Source: Syntrophaceae bacterium (lineage in GTDB: Bacteria > Desulfobacterota > Syntrophia > Syntrophales > Smithellaceae). From it: 64,000 nucleotides of DNA. Positions 3,365 to 56,422 of the stretch are shown in pieces; within the stretch, counting starts at the first letter, position 1; each line of letters opens with the position of its first letter. The position numbers and the translations under genes were made by a program. The stretch lies in contig PLMQ01000018.1 in NCBI GenBank assembly GCA_003142535.1, positions 25,573 through 89,572 of the forward strand, given 5' to 3'. The notes below the pieces were generated by a model. The model ran no database searches. It saw nothing but the letters and a program-made list of their open reading frames with translations, and was not told the DNA's origin.

Positions 3365-4147
3365 ATGAGTTACATAAACGACGCCCTGCGCAAAGCGCAA
3401 AAAGAAAAAGAATCAAATTACTCGGCCTACAGCGGTATTATCTGCGCGCCCGATAAAAAAGCCGGTCGGCCTTCGAGCTTATTTTTAATAGCCGGTTTGT
3501 TTATATTGTTGACACTCGTTGTGGGCGTTATTGTTTTCTTATACGGGCTGAAGAATGAAAAGATACTGGTGGCAAAAGTATCAGCTCCGGCAGAGACGCC
3601 ATTAGCCGCGGCCGGGCACAGGCAGGGAGATGCTCCGGGGACCCCGGAGGCTGCGGCAATCAGGGAGCAGGTACCGGGTAAGAACACGACGGTGGGGGAA
3701 ATAATTGCGAGAAATACACCAGCGGCGGAAACTGAAAAGGCAAAACTGGAAGATGCAATTGTTCTTTATAGACACGCCCTTGCTTTACAACGGGAAGGGA
3801 AATTAAACGAGGCTAAAAAATTGTATAAAAAAATAATCAGAAATGACCCGCACCATGTAAATGCGCTCAATAATTTGGGGGTTATTTATTTAAGCCAGAA
3901 GAATTTTAAATGGGCTATAATCCGATTTAATGACGCGCTGACGATAAAACCCGGTTATGCCGATGCTTATTATAATCTGGCCTGCCTTTATTCACAGAAA
4001 AAAGAAATTGCCCGCAGTTTTCATTATTTGAAAACTGCCGTTAAGATAAATCCGGAAGTAAGACAGTGGGCAAAAAATGATGCTGATTTGCAAGAATTAA
4101 GCAGATTCCCCGACTTTAATAAGTTGATGGAGGAGAAGGAAAATTAG
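3365..4147 (+). CDS. GspB-like membrane-anchored TPR-repeat protein
   Basis: The N-terminus MSYINDALRKAQKEKE matches the GspB/ExeB-type start. It has one TM and C-terminal TPR repeats (AYYNLACLY, ALNNLGVIY). The ATG at 3365 lies behind GGAGAG, whereas the ORF track starts at a GTG at 3359. Confidence 0.6.
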   Translation: MSYINDALRKAQKEKESNYSAYSGIICAPDKKAGRPSSLFLIAGLFILLTLVVGVIVFLYGLKNEKILVAKVSAPAETPLAAAGHRQGDAPGTPEAAAIREQVPGKNTTVGEIIARNTPAAETEKAKLEDAIVLYRHALALQREGKLNEAKKLYKKIIRNDPHHVNALNNLGVIYLSQKNFKWAIIRFNDALTIKPGYADAYYNLACLYSQKKEIARSFHYLKTAVKINPEVRQWAKNDADLQELSRFPDFNKLMEEKEN

Positions 4148-10370: not shown

Positions 10371-10488
10371 CTTTTGTATCCTTCGTATAACTTTGTTGGC
10401 AGCTGCGCAGTCATCCTCGACGTATTATAATATACGCCTGCGGAGCCTGCTCGCCGCCGCCGCGTTCTACTTTGGATACAAAAGCTAC
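10367..10488. repeat. family-2 hairpin element, copy G (level-1 form)
   Basis: Perfect 15-bp inverted ends (GTAGCTTTTGTATCC / GGATACAAAAGCTAC) enclose AACTTTGTTGGCAGCTGCG plus an inner hairpin module. It lies between dapL and ychF. The ORF-track extension 10393-10509 reads through it. Confidence 0.7.
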
Positions 10489-10509
10489 TATAGAGAAAGA
10501 TTATTAATT

Positions 10510-13638: not shown

Positions 13639-13891
13639 ATTGTGATAAACTTTCTTAAAGAAAAACAGTTAAATTAATCTTGCTGAAAAGTCACATACCA
13701 TAACCCATATTTACCTGACAAGAATTATCCAATTAATTACAGAGCTTCCTGCCTATGGCTTGGCAATGTTGCGATTATTTTTTGCTGCCAATTTTTCTTG
13801 ACACTCTATTGGACTTCTCTTATGCTTAACTTAAAGGAAGTTACAACCGATATAGAAAAACAATGGAAAGGATAAACGGCATAATTACTTA

Positions 13892-14145
13892 TTCGTGAAA
13901 CTCCAATTCCGAAAGCGAAGCTCGGCAGGGAACCCCGGCGCATGCCTGGGGATGCTGGTCGAAGCGTATCAGAATTGGGAAGTTGTAATGAGACCCAAAC
14001 TTCAGAAACAAAGTGCATAACCTAAAGGTCACAAGCTGAAGTTGGTTGGTCGAATTATCCCGCGAAGCGGAGAGTATAATCCCCCGCAGCGGGTTTAGGA
14101 ATCGGTTTCCAAAGCTTGCTTTGGGGATTATACCCGTGATTAAAG
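13892..14145 (+). repeat. family-1 hairpin-module array, locus A (3 modules, two with loop insertions)
   Basis: Starts TTCGTGAAACTCCAATT and ends CCCGTGATTAAAG. Module stems are CCAATTCCGA/…CAGAATTGG, AAACTTCAG/CTGAAGTT and TATAATCCCC/GGGGATTATA. The TAACCTAAAGGTCACA insert is at 14018-14033. Confidence 0.8.
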
Positions 14146-14206
14146 CGCTACAAATGTAATTATTCTGGTAAAATGTAAGTACATCTGTATTTCATATAGC
14201 AGGAAA

Positions 14207-16429
14207 ATGAGGGTGAATATGGATATAAAACAGAAAATTTTGGATACACTTCTCATTTTGAACACAGCCATCAAGAATGAGCGTCTTTATCCGCCTACCA
14301 GTTCGATCATTATCCACACAATAGAAAGACTTCATCAATCCTTGCTGGAAATTTTAACGCAGATAGATTCTTTAATTCTGGCCGAATCGGAAAAAAACAT
14401 CCTCATCTGCGGGGAGCCGCTAAATGCAAAAGAGCAGGAAAAACTACAGGTAACTGCATTTCTCAATATTCTTCTTAACTTTGGAATTAAAAGCATAACT
14501 TTTGAAAAAGGCCTGGAGAAAGAAGAGCTCCTTGCTTTCATTGATATTCTTTCTCGAAAACCGGCCGACCTGGCTGGTGAAAATGCTTTTGCGCAAATCA
14601 TGGCGGAAAAAAATGTAAAACATATTCTTTTGGATAAAAAAATTTATGTGGTTTTGAACAAAGATCAACAAATTATATCGGGGCTTGGTTTAAGTATTAC
14701 TGATGACCAGATTATGAAATTTGTTCAACATGTGCATCCTGATTTGGCTCCTGATCTTCAGAAGCTTCAGGAACTTGCCAAGGATCCGGAATGGCTGATG
14801 CTTACCTTTAAGGCCGGCTTATCTGAAGCCATGGCGCAAAAGGGGATTCTGACGAATGTTCAGCTTTCGCAAGGCCTGATAAATATGATGTCCCTCCTGG
14901 ATAAGGTGGCAGGCCCTCTGGAAAAAAATGATCAGGATAAGTTATCGCAGCGGATGGGCAAATCCATTGCTGATATAGACCCTGATGTGGCGGCTCAGGT
15001 GATGTCTCAAAATATCGAACATCTTTTCGGCGGCATGCTGATGCAGTATATTGCCAGTGAATTGGCCGGGCTGAAAGCCGTTGGTTTACGGACATCAGGA
15101 ACCGGCGGCCCAGGTGCAGGTGGTGGCGCAGGTAATGGTGCAGGCGGTGGTGGTGCGGGCTCAGTCTCAGGTGAAGGGGGGGTGCCGGGACAGTCCATTG
15201 ATGTTAAGGAAACCCTGAGTATGTTGCTGAAAGATGACAAAAAGGCATTGCTGGACGAATCTTTGCTGATGTCGCTGCCGAAAATTATTGAACAGCTCAT
15301 AGCTCAAAAGCAGCAGGAAACAATAGAAGCAGTTATTGACCGTTTGATGGACAATCTGGCTAGCGATAATATTGAAGTGCGCTCTCGGGCAGCGAAATCA
15401 CTGGTCGAGATTATAGAGCAAATTCCCGCCGAACAGAAAACCGAACTTATCGCGAATATAAATGACAAATTAATTGACTGGGTAAAATTGGAAACACTAG
15501 CCACTCCGGCCTATGAGAAAATATGCAGTATTCTGCAATCAGTTGCACAAGATGCAATTCGCCAGAGACAATTTGCGCGGGCAATACCAATCCTGAATGT
15601 TTTTAACGACATTCGCTCCGACGCTCTGGACAAAAATGACACAATTCATGAAATATCCAAAGATTTTATTCGCGTGCTGGCAACCGAAGAACAGCTTGCC
15701 TTTCTCTTCAGTGAATTTAACGTAAGTGAACACGAAAAGCAGTTGGAAGTGGGCGAGATATTAGTGAGGCTGGGCGATGTGGCCCTGAACCGTTTACTGG
15801 ATATACTTCGGGAAACCAAAGATAGTGATGAACGTGTCCGTATTATGCGCATGATTATCGGTATCGGGCCGATAACCATCCCCCTGATCAGGGAGCGGAT
15901 CAATAAAAGCGTGTCCTGGTTTTATTTGCGTAATCTGGCCTACATTTTGGGGCATATCGGCAATGAAGCCAGTGCAATTGCACTGAAACCGCTGCTGCTG
16001 CATGAAAACAGCAAGGTTCGGCAGGAGGCACTGAAAAGCATTTATCGGAAAGGGGGAGATCAGAGGAGCAAGGTGCTCTTGTCTGTTCTTCCGGACGCAG
16101 CTGATGAATTCAAAATTAATATTGTGGAGACGCTCGGTAATATGAAAAGTGCCGATGCGGTTGCCGATCTTCTGGATATGCTCAAGACCAAGCCGGTAAG
16201 ATCAAAATCGTTGCTATCCAGCCTGGAAGAAAAAATCTGTATTGCTCTGGGTTCCATCCGGTCTCCCGAGGCGATACCCGCCCTTACCGAAATTGCTGAG
16301 TCGAAATCATTTTTGCGCATCCGGTCTTATCCCGCCAATGTCCGCAATGCCGCCACAAATGCGGTAAACTCCATCAGGAAGAAACAGGCTGAGGCTAAAA
16401 AAGATAATGCCGGCACTTCCGCAAAGTAA
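14207..16429 (+). CDS. HEAT/armadillo-repeat protein with internal Gly-rich linker
   Basis: 740 aa. The C-terminal half has HEAT-like repeats (VRSRAAKSLVEI, VRQEALKSI, AIPALTEIA). The linker is GTGGPGAGGGAGNGAGGGGAG. The ATG at 14219, behind GAGG, is the more likely start. Confidence 0.65.
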   Translation: MRVNMDIKQKILDTLLILNTAIKNERLYPPTSSIIIHTIERLHQSLLEILTQIDSLILAESEKNILICGEPLNAKEQEKLQVTAFLNILLNFGIKSITFEKGLEKEELLAFIDILSRKPADLAGENAFAQIMAEKNVKHILLDKKIYVVLNKDQQIISGLGLSITDDQIMKFVQHVHPDLAPDLQKLQELAKDPEWLMLTFKAGLSEAMAQKGILTNVQLSQGLINMMSLLDKVAGPLEKNDQDKLSQRMGKSIADIDPDVAAQVMSQNIEHLFGGMLMQYIASELAGLKAVGLRTSGTGGPGAGGGAGNGAGGGGAGSVSGEGGVPGQSIDVKETLSMLLKDDKKALLDESLLMSLPKIIEQLIAQKQQETIEAVIDRLMDNLASDNIEVRSRAAKSLVEIIEQIPAEQKTELIANINDKLIDWVKLETLATPAYEKICSILQSVAQDAIRQRQFARAIPILNVFNDIRSDALDKNDTIHEISKDFIRVLATEEQLAFLFSEFNVSEHEKQLEVGEILVRLGDVALNRLLDILRETKDSDERVRIMRMIIGIGPITIPLIRERINKSVSWFYLRNLAYILGHIGNEASAIALKPLLLHENSKVRQEALKSIYRKGGDQRSKVLLSVLPDAADEFKINIVETLGNMKSADAVADLLDMLKTKPVRSKSLLSSLEEKICIALGSIRSPEAIPALTEIAESKSFLRIRSYPANVRNAATNAVNSIRKKQAEAKKDNAGTSAK

Positions 16430-16514
16430 AAAAGTTTAAGCTGCGCGAGGTTTCCTGAAATTACCGAAGCGAGAATGACGTAATCAACTTGCTGCAATCC
16501 TTCCTTGCCGGAGA

Positions 16515-16745
16515 AAATCACGGATACTATATCCCTGCTTATACGGGATAATTCGGCTAACAAACTTCAATTCGCTTCGCTTTTGAAGTTTGAGTCTCAT
16601 TATCCTCCGCTTCGCGGGATAGTTCAACTTATCAATTCCGACGCGCTTTGCTTTCGGAATTGGAGTTTCACGACCACCGCTTACGCGGGATTGTTCAACT
16701 TGCCAATTTCAATGCACTGCGTTATTGAAATTGGAGTTTCACGAA
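16515..16745 (-). repeat. family-1 hairpin-module array, locus B1 (3 tandem modules)
   Basis: Three units of about 72 nt. Each has a small CCGC-N3-GCGG hairpin, then GGATARTTCRAC, a long variable-stem hairpin, and AGTYTCAY. The array ends in GTTTCACGAA. The ORF 16505..16864 is a read-through artefact. Confidence 0.8.
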
Positions 16746-17010
16746 TAAAAAAATACAGCAAAGCAGGCTGCCGCTTCTTCTCTTCAGAAATTACATTTTT
16801 TGAAGTAACGATGCGGGATATATCGATTAAGTATGAGAGTAAAGATAAAAAATCCCGGCTGTAACTATTAAGGATTACAATCGGTCTGTTTCAGGAAGTG
16901 GAGGCGGCAAACCAATGATAGCAAGTAAGGCCGGGCCGCTAGTTATTTATAAAAAATGTCAGCATTTTCGTTTGCATAAACATTTGAACTGGAATAAATA
17001 GAAATAATAT

Positions 17011-17110
17011 TTAATCCCGCTGTACGGGGCTGTGCGGGATTGTTCAACTTGCCAATTTCAACTTGTGACCTTTAGGTTATGCACTGCGTTATTGAAATTG
17101 GAGTTTCACA
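17011..17110 (-). repeat. family-1 hairpin module, locus B2 (copy of the last B1 module plus an 18-nt loop insert)
   Basis: 17034-17061 and 17080-17109 are identical to 16685-16712 and 16713-16742. The extra CTTGTGACCTTTAGGTTA lies at 17062-17079. The module ends 35 nt upstream of mobB. Confidence 0.85.
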
Positions 17111-17141
17111 AATGAAATAATGGTAATAAGAGAATTAATAT

Positions 17142-17636
17142 ATGGCAATACCAATTATTTCCGTCGTAGGTAAATCCAATGCCGGCAAAACAACTCTGCT
17201 GGAAAAGTTGATTCCCGAACTGGTGAAGAGGGGATACCGCGTGGGAACTATTAAACATAATGTCCACGGATTCGAGATTGACCATGAAGGGAAGGACAGC
17301 TGGCGGCATAAAAAAGCAGGTACCCATTTGACTGTAATTTCATCTCCTGTTTGTTTAGCATTAATTGAAGATGTAGATAAAGATCACTCTTTGGAGGAAA
17401 TCAGAGAAAAATACATGAAAAATATCGATATAATCCTTTCCGAAGGATATAAGGGCAATCCTTTCCCCAAGATTGAAGTTTTTCGTTTGGAATTAAAACG
17501 AGAACTACTATGCCGCAAAGAAGACAATTTATTAGCTATTGCCTCTGATGTAAAAATAAACGCAGGTGTTCCCTGTTTGGATATAAATGATGCCGCAGGT
17601 ATTGTTGATTTAATCGAAAAAGAATTTCTTAAATGA
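17142..17636 (+). CDS. mobB: molybdopterin-guanine dinucleotide biosynthesis adapter MobB
   Basis: Contains IISVVGKSNAGKTTLLEKLI (P-loop) and GTIKHNVHGFEIDHEGKDSWRH. Confidence 0.85.
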   Translation: MAIPIISVVGKSNAGKTTLLEKLIPELVKRGYRVGTIKHNVHGFEIDHEGKDSWRHKKAGTHLTVISSPVCLALIEDVDKDHSLEEIREKYMKNIDIILSEGYKGNPFPKIEVFRLELKRELLCRKEDNLLAIASDVKINAGVPCLDINDAAGIVDLIEKEFLK

Positions 17637-17669
17637 TCATTTCCGTCGAAAAATTAAGCTCTTCGTCTT

Positions 17670-20600
17670 CTAAAACTGAATCCGCGAACTCAACAATCTT
17701 TTTCTCGGGAATTTGATATACGGCCTGATCTTTTGATTAATATTTTTACCCGTACCGTCATAATTAAGGGTAACGATCGGAATTCCGGTGTATTCTTCAA
17801 TCCGCGGCGCCATAGCTTCGGTTATCAGGCCGGCACAACAAAATGCCGGATTGGTCTGAACAAATAATGAGATGTCGGGATAATGTTTGGTCAGGGCGGC
17901 AATTTTGAGCAAATTGTCCATTGATTCACCGCACTGCTGAACTTTAACTTCAAAACTCTTATATATTCCCATATAATCAATATCAGCGTCCAGCGGCTGA
18001 TCGTTTACCAACTCGTTGAATAATTTATAATAGCTTTTTTCCAGTTGATTGACGAGGGTGATAACTGTTTTAGCCATCAAAACATCCATATATTCGCCTT
18101 CATAAAACCAACGCCGGATATAGGGGTCGGCGATCAATTTCGCAAATTCGTTGAAAGGCGTGGTTATGACTTCACCGCCGTATTCCTCAATGCAATGAAT
18201 GAGGTTTTGATTAAAGACATCGTTGTCGCGGGCATACATATCCCCGAAAATGGCTATTTTGGGTCGTCTTCCCGGGACTGTTTCAATTTTTTTGAAAAGA
18301 TTTATTACCTTGGCTACATCATCATCTTTGTTTCTACCGCCGAGCAATGTATTGTAAAAAATGTTCAGAGCCTGTGCGATGACTCTGTCCGTCATACCCT
18401 TTTCTTTTTCATAAGGCCTGATCTTGCAGCCGATTTTTCTGAGCATGCCACCGAATAAATGAGCAAAATAGGCCTCAATCGAAGCCTGTAAAGATATATC
18501 ATTCATGCTGATACTGCCCATATAAACATCAACTTTTTCCATACCATTGCCCACTACTTCCATCAATCCTTTGATCATTTGCGGATACATACGAATATTA
18601 CAGGCAACATGGCTTTCAAAACACCAGACGGCTGTCTGGGCGGGATCAAGATAATTATTTTCAATATAGTCAATATAGCTTTGAGCAATAAGATTGACCG
18701 GAATACACTGACCAGTGTTGGTCCGCAGACCGCGCTGAATAATCTTTTCTGTCAGCGGAACCATCCGGGCATCTATTCCTTCCTTAATATATACCGCTTC
18801 CAACAGCTTGGCGCTTAATGGATCAAAACCGGGAATGAGCAGAGTCTTATCTTTGATTTTGGTGGCACTTTCGGAGTTTAGCGGCAAGCTATGTTCCGGC
18901 ATGGTGCGCAATGACTTATTCTTATAATGATTACGGAACGAACGTACCGCCGCTTCAATCCGCGTTTCATAACCGACCTGGGAATCATGTTCGTCCAACT
19001 CGAGAATCAAATAGGGCTTCCCGTATTTATCCATGATCCGTTTGAAGTACTCGATTGTGAAAGAATCCGGGCTGCATTTGAATGACGTAACATAAACAGG
19101 ATATATCCCTTCGGTAAGTGCAGTAAAAAGTGCCGCTTTCAGAATTTTTGCGGCATAGTTCCAGTGCAGCCTTTTTAGCAGCGGATCGATCTCGGCAATA
19201 TCTTCTTTGTGATAGGGCAGCATGTCCTGATAGAAAGTTTTGATATTGAGATTGCTGAAGATGCCTGGTATCCCTTTGTTCATGGTATTTTGCAGGATGG
19301 AATAGGGTCTGCCGAGAAGAGCCACATGGATGTCCTTTTTGTCGAGCATTTCACGCTCGTAGATGTTGCGCAAATTGCCCCGCCTTTCCTTATAGTAGGA
19401 AAGCGCTGATTCATAGGCATTATAAATCTCCCAGTATCCGGAAGAAAGAATTGATTTCAGTAAAGTAAATAACTCTATTCTCGATTGAAACGAATTGTGA
19501 TCAATGACCGGCATAATTGCCTTGTTCTTCAGATGCAGGCTTTTGATTCCGGCGGCGAGTGTCGCGGCAAACTGAGTATAATAGCAGTAATATCTGTAGG
19601 CGTTCCGTTTTGGTTCTTTAGCTTCCAGATAGACAGGCAGAAAAATGTAATCGCATTTGTCGGCCAGATATTGGACATGGCCAAAGAAGGCATTCATCGG
19701 GGCACAGAATTCAGCCCCGGCAATTTTTTTGCCGTTTTTAATTGCATTTTTGAAATTATCACTTGTTATAGTTTCCACACCCAGAGTATTGAAGAAATGT
19801 TGCCATAACGGCATTTCCTCGGCCAGATATAATGCATGGGGAATTCCGATCTTAATTGGAATTTTGAATGACGAAGATTTCTTTGCTACCTGAAAAACTT
19901 TATTTCGTTCTTTGAGCAGATCATATTGTTTTTTTGTATTGCCGACATAATGCTTCGTATCATAATCACGACCGCAAAGGAATCCGAAGGCAACCGTTTC
20001 TCCCTGTACGGTAACTTTATTTATTTTGCAGCTATTATGGCAGAGTTCGCAAACTTCATTTTCTACCGGAATTGCTTCCTTATGCAGAGTGAGCCCGCGG
20101 AAAGAAGAATTTTTTACTCTATTTTCCGCCAGGATCAACGCGCTGCCTAATGCACCCGTTAAATGACAGAACTGAGAAACAAAGATAGGTTTTTTTAACC
20201 TATGCTCGAAAGCGGCAATCAATGCTTTATTACGCGCCGTTGCCCCCTGAAAGCAGATCCGGGCACCAATATTGGCCTCCATTGCCACCTTAGCCAGATA
20301 ATTTTCACAAACCGAATGTAGGACACTGGCCAGCACTTCATCAACCGTATATCCCTCAGTTAGGTAGTTGTTGATATCCCGTTCCATAAAAACAGTACAG
20401 CGGTCGGAAGAAATAGGGGACGGGGTATTAATGGCGCGATCGGCATAATCAGTAAGGGATACGCCAAGTTTCATTGCCTGCTCTTCGATAAAGCTCCCCG
20501 TTCCGGCGGCACAAACATTATTCATTACCGAGGAAGTGACCATGCCGTTTTTCATGTTGGTAAATTTGGCATCCTGCCCGCCGATTTCAATAATAGTGTC

Positions 20601-21863
20601 AACTTCGTTATCCAACTCGTAGGCGGCACGGGCGTGTGCCGTGATCTCGTCTATCACCAAGTCGGCGTTGATAATTCGTCCGATAAACTTTCTACCGGAA
20701 CCGGTAGTACCAACACCGTGAAAAATAAAGTTGCAGTCATGGCGAATATTAATATCTTCAATACAGTCGAAAAGAGCCTGAACTGCTTGAACCGGCTGAC
20801 CTGATGTCCGGGTATAAATGCCAATAAGCACGTTATTTTTTTCATCGATCAGAACAGCTTTCGTGCTGGTGGAACCGATATCAATCCCTAAGTAAACTTC
20901 CTGCGGCTTTTTTAGCGTTGAATAAATATTAACCTCAATCATTGAGGAGTTGTTTTTCGGCTGGTAGTTGTAACTTTCGATACTGGTGAAATCGGGATAT
21001 TGTGATGAGGATAACTGTAGTGGTGGATATCCGTAAATTTTTTCTTTTTGCTCATCGATAAAGATTTCATCCCAGCTTTTAATCTTCATCAGCTGAGGCG
21101 CTGTTTCTTCCAGATAGAGCAGCGCTGCACCGATTGCACCGTAAAGATGACTATATTCGCCGATAATCGGTTCCGCTTTCAGCAGATTACGGAAGTGTTT
21201 AACAACCGCCTGATTCATCGATACGCCACCGGCAAGGATTAACGGCGTCCGAATATTTTGGTCGGGAATCAAAGTATCCAGAACATTTTTTGCAAGGCCT
21301 TCACAGAGGCCGTCGCTAATCTGGCCTATCGAATAACCTTCCTGCTGGGCATTGATTAAATCTGTTTTGGCAAATACAGCACAGCGCGTAGCTATTTTAG
21401 GTGGATTTTCCTTATTACAAAAAGCAATCATGCTGAGCGCATCAATGCTTTTTAAGTTAAGCCGTTTGGCCTGCTGATCAAGAAAGCTTCCCGTGCCGGC
21501 AGCACACGATGAATTGGAACGATAGCGTTCATAATCGCCTTGCTCGGTAAAAGTGATCATGCCGAAGTTTTCACCGCCAACTGAAAGTATACTGCCGACT
21601 TCACGGTGATATTGTTTTACAGCAGCAATAATAGCGATCTGGGTATCATACCGCGAAACGTTACGCATTACTTCCGGGCCGGATAAAGTCATGGCAATAC
21701 CGCCAATCCGGCTAATATCTATGCTTTTCAGCATCTCTTTGAGCGTTTCGCTGATTGCACCGCTGTGGAACTGGTATGATGAATGAACTACTGCTCCTTT
21801 CTCATCAACGAGCACCAAAGAGACGGCAACCGAACCGATATCTATTCCAACGATGTTCAACAT
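17670..21863 (-). CDS. 1397-aa fusion: two BcrAD/BadFG-type ATPase (activase) domains plus 2-hydroxyacyl-CoA-dehydratase-like / DUF2229-like C-terminal region
   Basis: Two acetate/sugar-kinase-fold modules (IVGIDIGSVAVSL..CAAGTGSFLDQQA and LGIDIGSTSTKAV..CAAGTGSFIEEQA). A Cys cluster (CELCHNSCK) follows, then a C-terminal region of about 750 aa. Confidence 0.75.
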   Translation of the reverse strand: MLNIVGIDIGSVAVSLVLVDEKGAVVHSSYQFHSGAISETLKEMLKSIDISRIGGIAMTLSGPEVMRNVSRYDTQIAIIAAVKQYHREVGSILSVGGENFGMITFTEQGDYERYRSNSSCAAGTGSFLDQQAKRLNLKSIDALSMIAFCNKENPPKIATRCAVFAKTDLINAQQEGYSIGQISDGLCEGLAKNVLDTLIPDQNIRTPLILAGGVSMNQAVVKHFRNLLKAEPIIGEYSHLYGAIGAALLYLEETAPQLMKIKSWDEIFIDEQKEKIYGYPPLQLSSSQYPDFTSIESYNYQPKNNSSMIEVNIYSTLKKPQEVYLGIDIGSTSTKAVLIDEKNNVLIGIYTRTSGQPVQAVQALFDCIEDINIRHDCNFIFHGVGTTGSGRKFIGRIINADLVIDEITAHARAAYELDNEVDTIIEIGGQDAKFTNMKNGMVTSSVMNNVCAAGTGSFIEEQAMKLGVSLTDYADRAINTPSPISSDRCTVFMERDINNYLTEGYTVDEVLASVLHSVCENYLAKVAMEANIGARICFQGATARNKALIAAFEHRLKKPIFVSQFCHLTGALGSALILAENRVKNSSFRGLTLHKEAIPVENEVCELCHNSCKINKVTVQGETVAFGFLCGRDYDTKHYVGNTKKQYDLLKERNKVFQVAKKSSSFKIPIKIGIPHALYLAEEMPLWQHFFNTLGVETITSDNFKNAIKNGKKIAGAEFCAPMNAFFGHVQYLADKCDYIFLPVYLEAKEPKRNAYRYYCYYTQFAATLAAGIKSLHLKNKAIMPVIDHNSFQSRIELFTLLKSILSSGYWEIYNAYESALSYYKERRGNLRNIYEREMLDKKDIHVALLGRPYSILQNTMNKGIPGIFSNLNIKTFYQDMLPYHKEDIAEIDPLLKRLHWNYAAKILKAALFTALTEGIYPVYVTSFKCSPDSFTIEYFKRIMDKYGKPYLILELDEHDSQVGYETRIEAAVRSFRNHYKNKSLRTMPEHSLPLNSESATKIKDKTLLIPGFDPLSAKLLEAVYIKEGIDARMVPLTEKIIQRGLRTNTGQCIPVNLIAQSYIDYIENNYLDPAQTAVWCFESHVACNIRMYPQMIKGLMEVVGNGMEKVDVYMGSISMNDISLQASIEAYFAHLFGGMLRKIGCKIRPYEKEKGMTDRVIAQALNIFYNTLLGGRNKDDDVAKVINLFKKIETVPGRRPKIAIFGDMYARDNDVFNQNLIHCIEEYGGEVITTPFNEFAKLIADPYIRRWFYEGEYMDVLMAKTVITLVNQLEKSYYKLFNELVNDQPLDADIDYMGIYKSFEVKVQQCGESMDNLLKIAALTKHYPDISLFVQTNPAFCCAGLITEAMAPRIEEYTGIPIVTLNYDGTGKNINQKIRPYIKFPRKRLLSSRIQF

Positions 21864-21873
21864 TTTTAATGAC

Positions 21874-22123
21874 CTTTAATCACGGGTATTATATCCCTGC
21901 TTATACGGGATAAATCGGCTAACCAATTCCGATGCACTTCGTTTCGGAATTTGAGTCTCATTGCCCTCCGCTTCGCGGGATAATTATATTGCCCCGCTTA
22001 GCTTTGCATGCGGGATTAATTCAACTTGCAGATATTACTACCCTGCGCTTGTAATATCTGAGTTTCATTAATTCAACTTACCAATTTCCCTACACTACGT
22101 TATGGAAATTTGAGTTTCACGAA
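21874..22123 (-). repeat. family-1 hairpin-module array, locus C (4-5 modules)
   Basis: Starts CTTTAATCACGGGTAT, the reverse complement of the end of locus A. Ends GAGTTTCACGAA, the reverse complement of the start of locus A. It begins 10 nt upstream of the start codon of the 1397-aa gene. Confidence 0.8.
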
Positions 22124-22175
22124 TGAAGGGACTTTGCTCCTAAATGGCACCAGTAAAAATGCAGTTATTGTTCTG

Positions 22176-33078: not shown

Positions 33079-34152
33079 ATGAAATTTAAATCTTTTTTCA
33101 TCAAGAAAGAAACCGAGCTAAACTGGGCAAAGCTGATGGATTTGGTGCAGCCCAATGATTCCTTGCTTTTACTGATGTATGGCAGCCCTGATCCCGATGC
33201 CATTGCTTCGGCGATGGCTTTGCGTGAGCTTTTACAGCGCACCCGCGGGCTTGCCAAATGCAGTTTTGCCTCAACTGAACCATTGAACAGGCAACAAAAT
33301 TACGAGTTTATTTTTTCGATGCGCCTTAATATCCAGTCAATTAATCAAGTTGATTTATCTGCCTATCAGTTAATCGCGCTTATAGATGCGCAGCCATCTT
33401 TTCTTGGCGGCCCCTTAAGTTTTTTGCAGCCGCATATTGTTTTCGATCATCATCCGCGTGAAGGTAAATGGAAAGCAATGCTGGAAGATATCCGTCCTAA
33501 TTACGGCGCTTTATCCAGTATAATGACAGAGTATTTGCTTTGCGCCAATATAAAGATACCACGTAGCCTGCATACTGCCCTTCTCTATGGAATTAAAACA
33601 GACACGGATAATTTTGACCGCGACACTATTGCCGAAGATATCAACGCCTATACCTATCATACAAAATATGCCAACATGCCGCTCATCCGGCGCATTGAAC
33701 TCAATCAAACGCCGGACAGATTTTTAAAGTATTTCGACCATGCTTTCCATCATGTGAATAATTTTCGCGGTCGCAGGATTTGCTACTTGGGAAAAGTGGA
33801 AAGCCCCGATGTTTGCGTACAAGTGGCTGATTTTTTTCTGCGATTGATCGGCACTTATTACGTTGTTATCGCCGGCATTGTCGAAGACAAACTCATTATC
33901 ACTTTTCGCGGCGATGGTTACAGGCAGGATTGCGGCGCTCTTGCCCAAAATGCCTTTGGTTCATTCGGTAGCGGTGGCGGGCACAAGGGTGCTGCGCGCA
34001 TGGAAATTCCACTGAATGTTTTAAAAAAGCAGCTTGGCGATAATTTAGCGCAACATATTGTTGATCGATTTTTGATCGAAAATCTGAAAAGTGGACAAAA
34101 ATCAAAACAGGGTAAAAATGATTCGGCAACCAAGGGAGATAATAATTCATGA
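33079..34152 (+). CDS. DHH/DHHA1 phosphoesterase (NrnA-like)
   Basis: Contains the motifs SPDPDAIAS, FDHHP and GGGHKGAA (DHHA1). Confidence 0.7.
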   Translation: MKFKSFFIKKETELNWAKLMDLVQPNDSLLLLMYGSPDPDAIASAMALRELLQRTRGLAKCSFASTEPLNRQQNYEFIFSMRLNIQSINQVDLSAYQLIALIDAQPSFLGGPLSFLQPHIVFDHHPREGKWKAMLEDIRPNYGALSSIMTEYLLCANIKIPRSLHTALLYGIKTDTDNFDRDTIAEDINAYTYHTKYANMPLIRRIELNQTPDRFLKYFDHAFHHVNNFRGRRICYLGKVESPDVCVQVADFFLRLIGTYYVVIAGIVEDKLIITFRGDGYRQDCGALAQNAFGSFGSGGGHKGAARMEIPLNVLKKQLGDNLAQHIVDRFLIENLKSGQKSKQGKNDSATKGDNNS

Positions 34153-35192: not shown

Positions 35193-35354
35193 ATACTCCG
35201 GCGACTAGCTATGCAGTATGGCACACAATCACAACTTCGGTCGCCTATATCCGGAGGGAAAATGTTATGCGAGAGCAAAAAATTTACCCGACCCTTTAGA
35301 CATTCACGAAAGAATAGTTTTTGTCTTTTTTCTGGCTCTTTGGCTTAGCGCAAT

Positions 35355-35640: not shown

Positions 35641-35850
35641 TAATGAGACTCCAATTTCAAAAGCGTAGCGAATTAAAATTGGTTAGTCGAATTATCCCGC
35701 ATAAGCGGCGGTAATGAGACTCCAATTTCAAAAGCGTAGCGAATAACCTAATAACCTAAAGGTTACGCGAGGTCACAAATTAAAATTGGTTAGTCGAATT
35801 ATCCCGCGTAAGCGGTGGTAGTGAGACTCCAATTCCAAAAGCAAAGCGAA
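35641..35850 (+). repeat. family-1 hairpin-module array, locus D (2 full modules plus a third truncated in its loop)
   Basis: The unit TAATGAGACTCCAATTTCAAAAGCGTAGCGAATTAAAATTGGTTAGTCGAATTATCCCGCATAAGCGGCGG is repeated. Unit 2 has a 36-nt loop insert at 35744-35779. Unit 3 stops after ..GCAAAGCGAA, where the first attC-like site begins. Confidence 0.85.
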
Positions 35851-35911
35851 TAACGAAAAAATCAGCGGGAGGCGGGCGTAGCCTGCCGATCCGCTGTATT
35901 GTCTGGTTATG
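35849..35911 (-). repeat. attC-like site 1
   Basis: Sequence is ATAACGAAAAAATCAGCGGG-AGGCGGGCGTAGCCTGCCGA-TCCGCTGTATTGTCTGGTTAT, with outer AAC...GTT boxes. It is 3' of hicA. Confidence 0.55.
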
Positions 35912-35934
35912 CCAATTCTTTAATTATATGCTTT

Positions 35935-36081
35935 TCAAAGGTGTTCATCTATTTCATCATGTCTTGGAACGGGCTGCTTTTTACCTGTTTTAGGATTAAT
36001 ATAAAGATCGTGACGGCCGCCGTGCCTTACAAACTCGCAGCCGAAGGAAGTGATTTTCTTAATAAGTTCTTTTCTCTTCAT
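35935..36081 (-). CDS. hicA: HicA-family mRNA interferase toxin (48 aa, below the ORF-track cutoff)
   Basis: Hand translation gives MKRKELIKKITSFGCEFVRHGGRHDLYINPKTGKKQPVPRHDEIDEHL. The ATG overlaps the hicB stop (ATGA). Confidence 0.7.
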   Translation of the reverse strand: MKRKELIKKITSFGCEFVRHGGRHDLYINPKTGKKQPVPRHDEIDEHL

Positions 36082-36275
36082 AGATTGAAAGCAAGTTCTC
36101 TAACATTATGATTTTCAGGAACATCTTCCATAGTCATGAGCATGTAGGCATCTTTCATATTCTCTTCAAGCTCTTCAAGAGTTTCACCCTGGGTCATTAT
36201 TTCTGGATGTTCAAACAATTTGCCTATCCAAAATTTTTCGCCCTTCCAATAAATCATTTTCAGTTTTGTTTCCAT
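36078..36275 (-). CDS. hicB: HicB-family antitoxin (UPF0150-like)
   Basis: METKLKMIYWKGEKFWIGKLFEHPEIMTQGETLEELEENMKDAY, starting at an ATG behind AGGAGG. The track's longer ORF (to 36359) runs into attC-like site 2. Confidence 0.65.
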   Translation of the reverse strand: METKLKMIYWKGEKFWIGKLFEHPEIMTQGETLEELEENMKDAYMLMTMEDVPENHNVRELAFNL

Positions 36276-36355
36276 ATTCTTACCTCCTGACAACAACTTT
36301 TGATAATAATACCATAAAAATTGAAAATTTTCCGTTTTATATTGCTGGTTTTCAG

Positions 36356-36413
36356 GCATAACGAAAAAATCAGCCGGAGCGTAGCGATTGGCTATATTGA
36401 TTTTGAGGTTATC
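36356..36413 (-). repeat. attC-like site 2
   Basis: Sequence is CATAACGAAAAAATCAGCCGG-AGCGTAGCGAT-TGGCTATATTGATTTTGAGGTTATC. The vapC stop codon (36409-36411) lies inside the outer box. Unpaired bases are on one arm only. Confidence 0.6.
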
Positions 36414-36777
36414 TTTTTTTTATGTATTTTATGCACAGGTTATCTGCAGCTTGCGCCAGTTTCTTATCTTGTGTCCAGATAGGAACACCTGTCAATACAG
36501 CGGATGTAATAAGGTGGACATCAACATAGCCCAACCCTTTTCCCATTAAACGGTTATTTTCTATAAATGACAATACTTCGTCATGTTCGGCTTCGATGCA
36601 CATCGGCAGCAATTGCAAAAACGAAAGGATGATTGCTCTGTCTTTGAGATTCCCGCAGGCAAGTTCGCCTGCAATCAATGGGTGGCATAGTACCCGTCCA
36701 TCATTGAGCAGGTTTGCAAGATCAGCATTTCCATCCCTCAAATGTGAAACCCAAACCGATGTATCCACAAGAACCAT
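36409..36777 (-). CDS. vapC: PIN-domain toxin VapC
   Basis: MVLVDTSVWVSHLR... carries the conserved acidic residues of a PIN domain. It lies 3 nt downstream of vapB. Confidence 0.8.
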   Translation of the reverse strand: MVLVDTSVWVSHLRDGNADLANLLNDGRVLCHPLIAGELACGNLKDRAIILSFLQLLPMCIEAEHDEVLSFIENNRLMGKGLGYVDVHLITSAVLTGVPIWTQDKKLAQAADNLCIKYIKKR

Positions 36778-36780
36778 TTC

Positions 36781-36975
36781 CTATACCGCTCCTTTTCTTC
36801 TCGGTATCGCTTTCAACTGCTTTTGAGTCCCACCGAGCCTTGCAAGCCTCTTGCCACTTTCTCTGGCAATAAGAGCCTCAAGTCCAAGCTTAACGAGGGC
36901 GGTCTTTTCCTTGATTCCAGTCATTTTGGATGCTTTGGCCAGCAGGTTATCTTCGATATTCAAAGTTGTTCTCAT
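36781..36975 (-). CDS. vapB: VapB-type antitoxin
   Basis: 64 aa (MRTTLNIEDNLLAKASKMTGIKEKTALVKLGLEALIARES), upstream of the PIN toxin. Confidence 0.75.
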   Translation of the reverse strand: MRTTLNIEDNLLAKASKMTGIKEKTALVKLGLEALIARESGKRLARLGGTQKQLKAIPRRKGAV

Positions 36976-37043
36976 AGCTTCATCTCATACAATTAGTATG
37001 CCTGAGTATGTATCATCTATGCATATCTGTCAAGTCATTCTTA

Positions 37044-37096
37044 GCTAACGATAAAATCGCCCGGAGCATAGCGATCGGGTGTATTGACTGGTTAAT
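37044..37096 (-). repeat. attC-like site 3
   Basis: Sequence is CTAACGATAAAATCGCCCGG-AGCATAGCGAT-CGGGTGTATTGACTGGTTAA. Confidence 0.55.
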
Positions 37097-37118
37097 AATT
37101 TTATTAAATATTTTAATA

Positions 37119-37673
37119 TCACTTTATTTTATCAAGCCACTTCTTAATGGAAAGAAAAAATTTCATAAAGACATTCGACCCTATCGTCATTAATACTATT
37201 GTGTCGCGTGTAGATGAAGATGATATTTTGTTTTGAGAGAAATTAAAATCAGATTTACCCATTGATATTGCAAAACATTTACCTATGGCAAAAATAAGTT
37301 CATCCCAATCCGATGTTTTTCCCGTAATTGTATTTTGATATGTAGCGATTTCGTTGTTGACCGATTCCCATATACTGTCATTATTCGGTCGAATCATCAT
37401 GCTTGCTCTAATTATCTTGCTAAAAGAAACAAGAATTTCATCTTTCTTCTGTGCGTCGCCTGACCATAAGGTAAAAGCATAAATACAAGTAAATAGTTTT
37501 AATGCGTAAATATGAAATCGCAATTCAGTTTCTACGTTTGGATCAATTTGTTCAATTTCATAATTTTCTTTGTAAGATTGAATAGAAGAATTTGCCTCCT
37601 TATCCATAATACACAGAAAATACAAATGTTCGGCAATTTGATCTGGTGTATATTTTGTTTTGAAAATAGTCAT
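37119..37673 (-). CDS. cassette-encoded hypothetical protein (184 aa)
   Basis: The ORF is bounded by attC-like sites 3 and 4. The start is set at MTIFKTKY because the track's start (37703) lies inside site 4. No motif was recognised. Confidence 0.5.
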   Translation of the reverse strand: MTIFKTKYTPDQIAEHLYFLCIMDKEANSSIQSYKENYEIEQIDPNVETELRFHIYALKLFTCIYAFTLWSGDAQKKDEILVSFSKIIRASMMIRPNNDSIWESVNNEIATYQNTITGKTSDWDELIFAIGKCFAISMGKSDFNFSQNKISSSSTRDTIVLMTIGSNVFMKFFLSIKKWLDKIK

Positions 37674-37686
37674 GAAATTGCTCCAT

Positions 37687-37740
37687 ATTAACGAAAAAAT
37701 CACCCGGAGCGTAACGATCGGGTGTATTGACCTTGTTATA
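37687..37740 (-). repeat. attC-like site 4
   Basis: Sequence is TTAACGAAAAAATCACCCGG-AGCGTAACGAT-CGGGTGTATTGACCTTGTTAT. Confidence 0.55.
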
Positions 37741-37745
37741 GAATT

Positions 37746-38729
37746 TTATTGATTGTGATTCCAAGCATTCATAATATCTCGTGCCCTATCTTTGCTGAAA
37801 CCTTGACCAATAGCTTCATCAAGATGCCTATTTATGTCTGCTTCATTTGGTCTGAAATTTGGTGCCATAGACCTACTAAGTAATCCAAATCCGGAAATTG
37901 TATCTAAATCTTCGGAAAGTAAGGTAGGCACTTCTTCTACCGGAAGGATTGGTGTATCTTTTCTTTTACTTTGTGCCATATATTGATTTCTCTCTACTCT
38001 AGATAATGACATAGCTTGGTCAAGCAGTTCTTTCCCGTCAGGCATTATTTTATTCATATATTCAATCATTTTTTTCTCGGTGTCTTCCAATAAAAGTATT
38101 ACATCTTGAATGTTTCCACCTATCGATGCGCCTTGCTCCAACACTGCTTGGACTTTTTGCAGGGCGGTTGAATCCTTTAGAGTGGATAAAGGGATTTTGT
38201 CTTCGGAAATTTCTAATTCAGCGCCTAGGTTTTTTGCAGCTTTAATAAATCTATCTTGATCAAGTTTATCTTTTTCCCTAGCTTCTTCTATATCTTTTTT
38301 TGATATAGGTCGCCTCTCTGGTGGAAATAAGACGTTTTTATATCTTCGCTGAAGATGCCGCTCAAAACAACCAGGATATTCACTCCATATTATCATTTCA
38401 CCATTTTCAAAAAATGCATCCTCGGGATGAATATATGCGCCGTATTTATTTATAATTTCTTTTTTCATGTTATCTATTACCGCAATGTATCTTTGATCTC
38501 CACCATGCTCCGCTTTTGATTCTTCAAGATTTTTTAAAAATATAGGGATAGATAATCTACCACCTTCTTGAGACAATCGTGCTATCTCTTTATCTATTTC
38601 TTTCATTTGTTCTGCAGTTAGATCTTTTATCTTTTCAGGGGAGAATTGAGGAGCGCCTTTTTTACGGCTGTAGATAACATAACCAATAAAGATGAATACC
38701 AAAACAAGTATTATCCAAGACATAAGCAA
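37746..38729 (-). CDS. cassette-encoded hypothetical protein (327 aa, N-terminal TM anchor)
   Basis: MLMSWIILVLVFIFIGYVIY forms a TM helix, followed by a charged helical soluble domain. No motif was recognised. Confidence 0.55.
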   Translation of the reverse strand: MLMSWIILVLVFIFIGYVIYSRKKGAPQFSPEKIKDLTAEQMKEIDKEIARLSQEGGRLSIPIFLKNLEESKAEHGGDQRYIAVIDNMKKEIINKYGAYIHPEDAFFENGEMIIWSEYPGCFERHLQRRYKNVLFPPERRPISKKDIEEAREKDKLDQDRFIKAAKNLGAELEISEDKIPLSTLKDSTALQKVQAVLEQGASIGGNIQDVILLLEDTEKKMIEYMNKIMPDGKELLDQAMSLSRVERNQYMAQSKRKDTPILPVEEVPTLLSEDLDTISGFGLLSRSMAPNFRPNEADINRHLDEAIGQGFSKDRARDIMNAWNHNQ

Positions 38730-38751
38730 TCACCTCTTTATTCATTTATCC

Positions 38752-38815
38752 TATAACGAAGAAATCAGCCGGAGCGTAAGCGATCGGCTGGATTGAAAGG
38801 CGAAAAATGTTCTTG
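38752..38815 (-). repeat. attC-like site 5 (most divergent outer arm)
   Basis: Sequence is ATAACGAAGAAATCAGCCGG-AGCGTAAGCGAT-CGGCTGGATTGAAAGGCGAAAAATGTTCTTG. Confidence 0.5.
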
Positions 38816-46060: not shown

Positions 46061-46207
46061 ATACCATTTCGCCTTTCTTTGGCTAACTTTGTTGGCTGCG
46101 TCGTCGGCTTCCTCAGCGTATGTACTAACGCGTGACCTTTAGGTTATACGCCTCCGGCGCCTCCTCCTAGCCGCCTCGTTATCCTTTGAAAGCAAAACGG
46201 AATTACC
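46061..46207. repeat. family-2 hairpin element, copy E (level-2 form: backbone + 75-nt insert + mini-insert)
   Basis: The backbone is identical to copy H (CTTTGGCTAACTTTGTTGGCTGCGTCG ... TTATCCTTTGAAAGC). It is interrupted at 46104-46178, and the insert carries GTGACCTTTAGGTTA at 46132-46146. Confidence 0.8.
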
Positions 46208-50516: not shown

Positions 50517-50603
50517 GCCGAAGTGGTGGAACTTGGTAGACACGCTATCTTGAGGGGGTAGTGGACAAAATCCGTCCGGGTTCAAGTCCCGGCTTCGGCA
50601 CCA
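50517..50603 (+). tRNA. tRNA-Leu (anticodon GAG), CCA encoded
   Basis: Acceptor GCCGAAG/CTTCGGC, anticodon stem CTATC/GGTAG with loop TTGAGGG, a long variable arm, and T-arm CCGGGTTCAAGTCCCGG. Folded by hand. Confidence 0.85.
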
Positions 50604-56420: not shown

Positions 56421-56422
56421 CT

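Follow-up and report, generated by a model that had tools for sequence, protein, structure and literature searches.

What are the short hairpin modules that recur between the genes of this Syntrophaceae contig, and why do their stems stay paired when the stem sequence changes? The whole stretch of DNA analysed, 64,000 nt in length, is referred to here as the window. A preliminary description of it, made from the letters alone, had recognised no described element in the modules and had suggested three identities: cassette-less relatives of integron attC sites, a REP/BIME-like system, or a new structured RNA family.

For detection of the family, a covariance model was built from 106 modules, five of which were taken from the window. 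The model matched the window loci together with loci of many other genomes. Within the window it returned 10 real matches (E values 1e-19 to 0.17), all of them at five intergenic loci that lie where the preliminary description had placed them, and the scan of the full 64 kb gave no credible match outside these five. Partial and interrupted copies in two of the arrays were added by nhmmer. The total comes to about 11-13 modules, lower than the roughly 15 first counted. Tandem Repeats Finder reported a period of 71 nt at 16573-16744, in agreement with the repeat unit of about 70 nt originally proposed.

The most regular array is B1 (16516..16750, plus strand), in which the left end AATCACGGATAC is followed by three canonical modules at 16545-16602, 16616-16673 and 16687-16744 (75.9, 69.5 and 76.8 bits, respectively) and by the right end CACGAATAAA; its predicted DNA folds agree with the structure obtained from covariation (z -3.4 to -3.9). 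Element B2 (17013..17114, plus strand) consists of one module, matched at 17040-17111 with 38.6 bits, that carries an 18-nt apex insert, CTTGTGACCTTTAGGTTA. The start codon of mobB (MobB, PF03205) lies 28 nt downstream of its end. Array C (21878..22124, plus strand) runs from the left end AATCACGGGTAT to the right end CACGAAT, with modules at 21907-21963, 22013-22070 (arm CAGATATTAC) and 22072-22120 (46.4, 69.1 and 48.3 bits, respectively) and extra small hairpins at 21964-22012. On the minus strand, array A (13889..14141) has the same left end, AATCACGGGTAT, at 14133-14141, extra small hairpins and the right end CACGAATAA. Its module A1 (13986-14075; covariance-model match 13986-14057, 33.8 bits) has an apex with a GTGACCTTTAGGTTAT insert, and A2 (13893-13985), found by nhmmer at 13893-13922, has a large apex insert. 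Array D (35641..35851, minus strand; 79.7 and 14.5 bits) comprises D2 (35641-35698), D1 (35712-35805, with a 36-nt apex insert; nhmmer matches 35712-35743 and 35779-35805) and D0 (35819-35851, an nhmmer match). D0 is a half module, and an adjoining attC site stands in place of its 5' arm.

The module plan as first described, a small CCGC-N3/4-GCGG hairpin, a GGGAT(A/T) linker, a long hairpin and AGTYTCAY, was reproduced. The small hairpin of each module has the form ATCCCnn-loop-nnGGGAT, and the long hairpin, about 54 nt in length, runs from an RTTCRAC box through a variable stem of 10 bp and a loop of 12 nt to AGTYTCAY. Its arms are complementary as reported, but the paired region is larger, as it also takes in the outer boxes, two flanking bases and an apical mini-helix. 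Column composition over all 107 modules places RTTCRAC opposite GTYTCAY, paired across a fixed TC/TC mismatch, and a 2-bp mini-helix was found within the 12-nt "loop". Covariation thus resolves the long hairpin into an outer stem that is broken by an invariant 2x2 mismatch; above it come a bulge of 2 nt and a 10-bp stem whose sequence is free, and a small internal loop then leads to an apical helix of 2 bp that is closed by a triloop.

Pairing was tested on 106 distinct modules from more than 40 genomes, with 20 pairs and hence 2120 cells. Paired cells made up 94.0%, compared with 71.8% in shuffles, and none of 500 shuffles reached the observed value; in slid controls pairing was at most 46%. 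Changes on both sides occurred in 17 of the 20 pairs, and for three two-state covarying pairs all eight combinations were found. The stems therefore keep structure and not sequence through true compensatory covariation, as had been suspected, and the hairpin is under selection to stay paired.

The composition of the hairpin bears on the molecule that folds. Read on the complement strand, the apex is (G/A)CG-N-AG(C/T), i.e. the motif known from mini-hairpin DNA, GCGNAGC, and the fixed mismatches turn into tandem G·A pairs flanked as T-GA-A. For mini-hairpins of the GCGNAGC/GCGNNAGC type, a markedly higher stability of the DNA form over the RNA form is reported (PMC13037366). Mispairs among the 2120 cells were 27 G·T and 32 A·C. 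With G·T not above A·C, GCGNAGC apexes and tandem G·A pairs on one strand, the evidence points to a folded single DNA strand. Nearest-neighbour DNA folding gave equal energies for both strands, so the choice of strand is not informed by folding.

To follow the family across species, genomes were scanned with one genome taken per species. At least 112 stretches were recovered, with about 27 Syntrophia and about 13 Bacteroidota/Chlorobiota genomes among the matches listed (counted by assembly prefix), and 247 covariance-model matches were obtained in about 0.87 Mb of locus sequence. The family is thus not confined to one region: it is common in MAGs of Smithellaceae/Syntrophaceae and occurs in MAGs of Bacteroidota/Chlorobiota and on IMG/VR phage contigs. 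A separate search of IMG/VR with the left-end motif gave 21 matches, all of which were conserved phage coding sequence and not the element. The proteins that the Bacteroidota loci have in common with the Smithella loci are SOD and YjbQ. No match to array B1 was obtained by blastn in GenBank phages or PLSDB plasmids. Rfam 15 returned none at gathering score and, at E<=10, only a chance miRNA match of 20.7 bits. A literature search for an earlier description of such repeats in Smithella found none, and the initial impression that this is not a described element therefore holds for these sources.

Several observations suggest that the element is mobile, among them its occurrence on phage contigs and the position of several copies at the ends of contigs. 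Arrays A, B1 and C have a conserved left end, AATCACGG(G/A)TA, and a conserved right end, CAC(G)AAT(A/G)A, which marks them as bounded elements and not open-ended arrays. A complete element, of about 150-250 nt and two to eight hairpins, starts with (A)AATCACGGGTAT, continues with one or two small hairpins and then one to four modules, and finishes with TCAC(G)AATAA(A); this right boundary is approximate, as AATAA may belong to the element or to the target. Six pairs of orthologous sites were found in which one genome has the element and the other lacks it (L104/L112, L052/L067, L050/L007, L069/L020, L018/L038 and L114/window). Two loci of one MAG, L058 and L084, hold a common 148-nt copy with 98.6% identity between unrelated flanks, and arrays at the same site with 89% identical flanks differ in module content. 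No site was conserved in all relatives compared. The element ends, AAATCACGGG.. and ..CACGAATAAAC, are not inverted copies of each other, so that there are no terminal inverted repeats, and no target-site duplication was seen in the flanks of the near-identical copies or of the filled/empty site pairs. A DDE-type MITE was rejected on these two grounds. An intrinsic terminator was also rejected, as no T-run follows the hairpin on either strand.

Based on these features, we consider it on balance probable that the modules are the units from which a miniature, non-autonomous mobile DNA element is assembled, one that is folded as a single DNA strand and moved by a structure-specific enzyme. The working form would be one folded DNA strand, presumably the complement of the module orientation seen in B1, i.e. 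the plus strand at loci A and D. An enzyme encoded elsewhere, for which a HUH/Y1 nuclease or a tyrosine recombinase would be candidates, would recognise the hairpins and not the stem sequence, and would copy or move the element into A/T-rich intergenic DNA without target duplication. Selection on recognition by this enzyme could maintain stem pairing while the stem sequence drifts. Effects on neighbouring genes, as when a copy provides a TAA stop codon or places a ribosome-binding site, GGAG, at a distance of 7 nt from an ATG, would be secondary and reflect where copies survive.

Covariation alone cannot separate RNA from single-stranded DNA, and the modules could act as RNA, in the form of a cis-acting hairpin in polycistronic transcripts that, for example, directs their processing or stability in the manner of an RNase III site, or serves as a ribosome-binding cassette with the Shine-Dalgarno-like GGAG in its 3' arm. 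The paired length of about 20 bp would suit such a role. On IMG/VR contigs, a downstream start codon in the same orientation adjoins 9 of 14 modules, and five of these nine overlap the ATG itself (e.g. ..TTGGAGTCTCATTATG, with GGAG 7 nt upstream); among co-oriented bacterial arrays, 30 of 69 finish <=45 nt before the next start codon. Adjacency to gene boundaries is, however, expected of any element that fills a short intergenic spacer, and orientation relative to flanking genes showed no bias (69 co-oriented, 65 opposed), such that transcription would give the antisense strand for half of the copies. In many subfamilies TGAGT, CGAGT or GGGTC stands in place of GGAG, no Rfam family matches, and G·U-type pairs are scarce and do not outnumber A·C in the counts given above. 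A role as RNA is therefore unlikely, and the structured RNA family first suggested is disfavoured by the mispair counts and the random orientation. The modules might instead be structural DNA that is retained by the host and is not selfish, serving as hairpin or cruciform sites for protein binding (as E. coli BIMEs), for single-strand initiation or priming, or as recombination hot spots for gene shuffling. Replication origins of ssDNA, ssiA and N4 promoters are reported to contain mini-hairpin sequences (PMC13037366), the family persists in many Smithellaceae species, modules turn over at one site with the flanks unchanged, and TTGACA is mildly over-represented <=30 nt downstream (8 of 176 compared with a background of 0.7%). 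A spreading element accounts better for the presence/absence polymorphism, for dispersed copies that are nearly identical and for the distribution over unrelated phyla and phages; the lack of any position conserved across all relatives also speaks against a host function, as does the even distribution of orientations with respect to GC skew (positive in 86 of 179), which is a weak test on 8-kb pieces. We consider host retention rather improbable.

The relation to attC sites needed closer comparison, as array D adjoins five of them. These sites, at about 35851-35912, 36359-36416, 37046-37102, 37689-37745 and 38754-38810 (35851..38810, plus strand), are not members of the module family. They separate cassette ORFs on the minus strand, including VapB/VapC (PIN) at 36409-36975, and fold as R-box, unpaired spacer and L-box. 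The same attC family was found on at least 120 metagenome contigs, some of which adjoin integron integrases (TIGR02249, 469 and 406 bits), and for this reason the sites described earlier as attC-like are taken as genuine attC. A GCGNAGC or GCGNNAGC apex is present on 162 of 214 sites of this family. The loop core that modules and attC sites had been said to share is real, but reduces to this apex plus a few neighbouring bases. Integron attC sites act as folded single strands, and the modules resemble this family (AACGAAAAAATCAGCCGGAGCGTAGCGATCGGCTG..GTTA) in being structure-conserved, sequence-variable hairpins with an RYYYAAC-like 5' box, AAC/GTT pairing and unpaired stem features, as well as in the apex.

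It could accordingly be argued that the modules are attC sites in a degenerate or specialised form ("micro-cassettes"), recombined by the integron integrase of the lineage and dispersed by secondary-site insertion. The 5' box in the form GTTCAAC fits RYYYAAC, the 3' box begins with GTT paired to AAC, the internal loop and bulge loosely resemble the unpaired spacer and extrahelical bases, the half module D0 meets the attC site exactly at the stem/loop border, and target duplication is absent. The two boxes, however, do not both fit the attC consensus: RTTCRAC conforms when position 5 is A, but in all 107 modules the 3' box GTYTCAY, while keeping GTT, has a fixed T and C where GTTRRRY needs purines. 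Modules occur in only 4 of the 120 attC loci listed and are absent from every locus with an IntI match, and no intI was found in the window. The spacing of 71 nt is too small for cassettes, of which there are none between modules, and the modules are dispersed, at five separate intergenic sites within 64 kb and at more than 100 unrelated loci, without linkage to intI or attC arrays. Insertion of the cassette array into module D0 by a G|TT crossover was considered and discarded, as the junction sequence does not fit. We hold derivation from attC to be highly improbable, and the description as cassette-less attC relatives was not upheld.

The mobile-element reading was then compared with known dispersed repeats. 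REP/BIME and REPINs of Enterobacteria and Pseudomonas are mobilised by RAYT Y1 transposases. Like the modules, REP/BIME/REPIN sequences are short imperfect palindromes, intergenic and high in copy number, arranged in mosaic arrays with paired stems and without terminal inverted repeats or target-site duplications, and are probably recognised as single-stranded hairpins by an enzyme from another locus. BOX of Streptococcus pneumoniae has the layout boxA-boxB(n)-boxC, is dispersed and has no linked transposase; it shares with our element a fixed left part, variable tandem internal hairpin modules and a fixed right part, situated between genes. The modules differ from BOX in having no sequence relation to it, several stem subfamilies with covarying arms and a mini-hairpin DNA apex. 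Of the three original suggestions a REP/BIME-like system fits best, but without the tag and inverted pairs of that system. REP palindromes carry a conserved GTAG or CGTC tetranucleotide at one end, according to Di Nocera et al. 2013 (PMC3733652); no GTAG or CGTC was found at the hairpin feet of the 107 modules, which are RTTCRAC and GTYTCAY. Modules also stand head-to-tail in one orientation, whereas the REPIN mobile unit is an inverted REP pair, and they have two different hairpins per unit and defined left and right ends. Their range takes in two or three phyla as well as phages, in contrast to the vertical inheritance described for REPINs. With IS200/IS605-derived PATEs the element shares hairpins near both ends, the lack of terminal inverted repeats and target duplication, and a short conserved motif, TCAY, that recurs at internal junctions and at the right end. 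PATEs insert 3' of a fixed tetra- or pentanucleotide; for the element, no conserved target tetranucleotide could be demonstrated at the empty sites compared, no orientation bias was seen, and the sampled loci yielded no full-length copy bearing TnpA or TnpB. Known Y1 "peel and paste" elements show a lagging-strand bias, of which the weak GC-skew test gave no sign here. The element is most likely a REP/BIME- or BOX-like non-autonomous mobile hairpin element that has not been described previously.

For identification of a mobilising enzyme, 1,896 ORFs from 112 loci (~0.9 Mb) were compared by all-vs-all blastp; no recurrent neighbour gene emerged, only housekeeping paralogues. A motif scan of the sampled loci for Y1 transposases pointed to L040 and L063. 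The search for RAYT/Y1 genes proposed earlier, carried out on the sampled loci, yielded one clear Y1_Tnp gene (L040 1127-1772; PF01797, 48.9 bits), but this is flanked by other repeats, ATAAAGGGGACAGAT. With its own, different terminal repeats, this RAYT-like gene was set aside as the mobiliser, and in contrast to REP no RAYT gene flanked by modules was found in the sampled loci. Neither was a long copy with an internal ORF, i.e. a left end followed by a distant module, found there. A XerC-like gene between two arrays of L096 was also dismissed, since its homologues in L069 and L020 lack flanking modules; judged by sequence motifs and blastp, it looks like an ordinary XerC/XerD-type recombinase. 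A bolder reading, which we think unlikely, is that the modules represent an unrecognised class of structure-specific ssDNA mobile element, with GCGNAGC caps and G·A-stiffened stems, that crosses Desulfobacterota, Bacteroidota and phages. Its enzyme would be neither a RAYT nor a classical transposase, and might perhaps be the integron integrase of the lineage, acting on the attC-like R box, or a host or phage enzyme.

Smithella and its relatives are key syntrophic degraders of alkanes and fatty acids and are known almost only from MAGs. In these genomes the repeat is very abundant but has so far gone without annotation. At several loci (L019, L046 and L084) a copy lies at the end of its contig, which indicates that the repeat breaks assemblies; it can also create false small ORFs and shift apparent start and stop codons. 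The covariance model provides a means to mask or trace it. As a natural example of selection on the secondary structure of DNA the family is unusually clean: twenty pairs covary, nothing bears the signature of RNA, and the cap is the textbook motif of mini-hairpin DNA. That a widespread family of true attC sites carries this cap as well suggests a general rule in the design of ssDNA recombination sites. If a mobilising enzyme were found, the system could serve as a compact structure-specific DNA insertion tool. Given its occurrence in two or three phyla and in phages, the element would be a useful marker of gene flow in anaerobic communities.

All five repeat loci of the preliminary description exist and are intergenic: A (13889-14141) and D (35641-35851) on the minus strand, and B1 (16516-16750), B2 (17013-17114) and C (21878-22124) on the plus strand. 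All loci were read in a common B orientation, that is, the plus strand at B and C and the minus strand at A and D. Read this way, a module comprises a small hairpin (CCGC-N3/4-GCGG, or the longer form ATCCCnn-loop-nnGGGAT), the linker GGGAT(A/T), the box (G/A)TTC(A/G)AC, two unpaired bases, a 10-nt arm, a 12-nt "loop", the complementary arm and AGT(T/C)TCA(C/T). The period at B1 is 71 nt (Tandem Repeats Finder). The left end AATCACGG(G/A)TA is common to arrays A, B1 and C, which terminate in CAC(G)AAT(A/G)A. Matches to a module covariance model within the 64 kb were confined to the five loci. Comparison of the module with Rfam gave no match even at E ≤ 10, in line with the earlier failure to recognise a described element.

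Hairpin structure was scored on an alignment (A2) of 106 distinct modules of canonical length, stacked without gaps, using the structure ....((((..((((..((((((((((...((...))..))))))))))))))..)))). Standard pairs were present in 94.0% of 2120 cells versus 71.8% in shuffles, with none of 500 shuffles reaching the observed pairing; when the 3' partner was slid by 1-3 columns, pairing was at most 46%. Both sides had changed in 17 of 20 pairs, which bears out the proposal that structure is kept and stem sequence is not. Three pairs alternate between two states nearly without exception, at columns 7/56 (A-T 55, G-C 47), 11/52 (G-C 54, A-T 50) and 30/36 (A-T 51, G-C 46); the states occur in every one of the eight possible combinations, and the pairs therefore changed independently. 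From the base up, the long hairpin consists of an outer stem with a constant TC/TC mismatch, a 2-nt bulge, a 10-bp stem of free sequence, a 3x2 internal loop, a 2-bp apical helix and the triloop T-N-C. Of the 55 distinct 5' arms of the inner stem, 41 belong to one large cluster, 11 to another, and three are singletons. One subfamily (arm CGCTTCAAAC / GTTTTCAGCG) contains a further TC/TC mismatch, located within the inner stem. Predicted DNA folds of the window modules matched the covariation-derived structure. The module hairpin is under selection.

Four observations argue for DNA over RNA as the working form: mispair symmetry, lack of orientation bias, DNA-stable motifs and the cap found on attC sites. 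A structured RNA is expected to show a clear G·U excess on the sense strand; among the 2120 cells (1965 Watson-Crick), the wobble type was not commoner (G·T 27, A·C 32). Array orientation was random: 69 arrays were co-oriented with the downstream gene and 65 opposed to it. It was likewise random by type of intergenic region (tandem 75, divergent 24, convergent 17) and by local GC skew (positive in 86 of 179). On the strand complementary to B orientation, the conserved unpaired bases become motifs known to be stable in DNA. There, the TC/TC mismatches read as tandem G·A in a T-GA-A context, which favours sheared G·A pairs, putative for the modules. The apex becomes (G/A)CG-N-AG(C/T), i.e. GCGNAGC, a cap also carried by a family of true attC sites; sites of this kind work as folded single strands. 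Many small hairpins on this strand are CCGCGAAGCGG or CCGCGTAAGCGG. GCGNAGC and GCGNNAGC are "mini-hairpin DNA" sequences, reported to be markedly more stable than their RNA counterparts and to occur in ssDNA replication origins, in ssiA and in N4 promoters (PMC13037366). The active strand would be the complement of B orientation, an assignment kept conditional because a nearest-neighbour energy model did not separate the two module strands. Action of the modules as RNA, one of the options raised from the sequence alone, draws its main support from gene boundaries. The right end is often flush with such a boundary: the terminal TTA of the element, TAA on the opposite strand, forms the exact end of 12 of 65 convergent genes. 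Several genes on phage contigs start at ..GGAGTCTCATTATG, and the 30 nt downstream show a mild enrichment of TTGACA (8/176 versus a background of 0.7%). These features are read as survivorship effects: in genomes with short spacers, copies would be retained at places where a stop codon, a GGAG or an A-rich stretch is provided by the element. Given the mispair counts and the random gene orientation, the RNA reading is not supported.

A second option was kinship with attC sites. On predicted fold and family context, the five sites at about 35851, 36359, 37046, 37689 and 38754 (span 35851-38810; cassettes on the minus strand) are genuine attC sites. In the predicted fold of each, an R box of 5 bp (ATAAC/GTTAT) is followed by an unpaired 3x3 spacer, then by an L box of 7 bp that contains extra bases, and finally by a terminal structure. 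The sites separate small ORFs, including VapB/VapC, on the minus strand. No intI was found in the window, whose attC cluster therefore lacks an integrase. Among the matches listed, an exact 21-mer from this family is shared by more than 120 metagenome stretches, several of which encode integron integrases. Those of L251 and L224 reached 469 and 406 bits on NCBIfam TIGR02249 (cut-off 265), a result independent of the IntI1 query. The apex of 214 sites of this family was GCGNAGC in 141 and GCGNNAGC in 21 (162/214, 76%), so that the "loop core" said to be common to modules and attC-like sites is real. In the window sites the motif lies on the plus strand (35870-35890, 36375-36390), opposite the cassette ORFs, which by the usual convention would be the bottom, recombinogenic strand; it may help attC bottom strands in general to fold. 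Beyond this cap, modules differ from integron attC sites: their 3' box violates GTTRRRY, they are dispersed with no cassettes between them, and among the attC loci listed they occur in 4 of 120 and in none with IntI matches. The suggested relationship is accordingly not supported, and we conclude that modules and attC sites share a design feature, not a common mechanism. The cap should nucleate folding of single-stranded DNA.

Modules and attC sites meet at array D, which is closed by a half module, D0. An attC site takes the place of the 5' arm of D0, the junction falling exactly at the border of stem and loop; a G|TT crossover does not explain this junction. The syntenic locus L081 lacks the entire block at 35.2-39.85 kb. 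In the window, a degenerate left end (ATCACCGGTATGAATACTCCGG, 35182-35215) immediately follows the stop codon of gene 34149-35192, and at the matching place L081 has an intact array in plus orientation (3770-3985). To judge from this comparison, the window array was probably lost or disrupted upon arrival of the cassette block.

Several observations indicate that the element moves. Comparison of related genomes gave six pairs in which an orthologous site is filled in one member and empty in the other; at three such sites the window is the empty member and L114 the filled one. Where the left junction could be aligned, the insertion begins at CACGGG; its right junction would fall at one of two places, following either TCAY or AATAA(A). 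L058 and L084, both from a single Bacteroidales MAG, each carry a 148-nt copy running from AAATCACGGG to CACGAATAAAC; the two copies are 98.6% identical, with unrelated flanks and with neither inverted termini nor duplication. L017 and L113 carry different modules at the same site, with flanks 89% identical. B1, L112 and L108 have in common a composite of two modules, with arm CAAACTTC.. followed by arm CCAATTCCG.., and multi-module units therefore move as a whole; L050 has this composite with a different second arm. Some copies lie at contig ends, as repeats are expected to break assemblies.

A gapped pattern scan using one genome per species gave more than 112 stretches with the pattern among the matches listed, so the family is not confined to this region, a point the preliminary description had left to a wider covariance model scan. 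The majority of stretches listed come from Smithella, Smithellaceae or Syntrophaceae MAGs and others from Bacteroidales, Rikenellaceae, Salinivirgaceae, Ferruginibacter, Vicingus and Chlorobiota MAGs, whose stretches the covariance model scores as real modules (53-82 bits). At least one contig of this Bacteroidota/Chlorobiota-assigned group encodes a type IX secretion sorting domain, which we take to be a mark of Bacteroidota. L013 and L097 were rejected as members, both being high-GC with matches due to chance. A module-bearing "Candidatus Buchananbacteria" contig (L075, CAIOLF010000041.1) is 79% identical in DNA to Smithellaceae loci L104 and L112 and was probably mis-binned. In IMG/VR viral contigs, 28 stretches fit the two-hairpin pattern; one 46-kb contig, which also has Neck1 and tail genes, carries at least four modules within a single fetched stretch (L122) and pattern matches in two more (L124, L145). 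A blastn search with array B1 gave no match among GenBank phages or PLSDB plasmids. Identical MobB-bearing contigs recur in several ENA, JGI and Logan metagenome assemblies, and the source of the window is therefore an uncultured population. The longest array seen, in L096, has four to five modules at a 121-nt period on one side of an XerC-like gene and two more on the other (2457-2867 and 3866-4069).

The REP/BIME-like suggestion proved apt as to behaviour: the elements work like REP/BIME, REPIN or BOX elements but fail the defining tests of each, having no GTAG/CGTC tag, no inverted pair and, in the loci examined, no RAYT flanked by the repeats, and they lack the TIR/TSD that MITEs require. 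On a search of the Smithella literature, the family is not previously described. Dispersed hairpin repeats are expected in bacteria; beyond the ordinary are the clean covariation on DNA, the mini-hairpin cap common to a large attC family and the spread over phyla and phages.

No recurrent gene family was found near elements in the loci examined, nor any left end separated from its own module by an ORF, and a viral-contig scan for the left end matched solely phage coding sequence. The XerC-like gene of L096 resembles an ordinary XerC/XerD-type recombinase and was rejected as mobiliser. A RAYT-like Y1 transposase gene (PF01797) of Smithella sp. SCADC (L040, 1127-1772) was also rejected; its own inverted ATAAAGGGGACAGAT repeats differ from modules, and gene and repeats form a distinct REP-like system of this lineage. 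A structure-specific single-strand enzyme would fit better than a DDE transposase because of the hairpins at both ends, the lack of TIR/TSD, the head-to-tail arrays and the TCAY constant at the right end and every internal junction. Neither strand bias nor a fixed target was seen for the elements, for which reason this reading is kept tentative.

A second dispersed repeat family (..GCTAACTTTGTTGGCTGCGTCGTCGGCTTCCTC...GCCGCCTCGTTATCC) occurs in the window at 10377-10489, 46073-46203 and 63234-63289, in L114 (4290-4420) and in L055 (6790-6905). Its TAAC...GTTA ends also give it an attC-like look, and the copy at 63234 is an internally deleted form with both ends joined. A nested insert of 18-36 nt with GTGACCTTTAGGTTAT, its own small palindrome, was seen at 14003-14030, 17062-17085, 35742-35777 and 46130-46155 and in L020, L038, L055 and L114. 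It lies on the 5' side of the apex in some module hairpins and is also found at the apex in the second repeat family, as though hairpin tips were its target. A cobalamin riboswitch (56268-56450, minus strand, 92 bits) overlaps the called start of a 711-aa ORF (54183-56318), and tRNA-Leu(GAG) and tRNA-Thr(CGT) are listed with 50517-50603 (plus strand) and 59833-59908 (minus strand).
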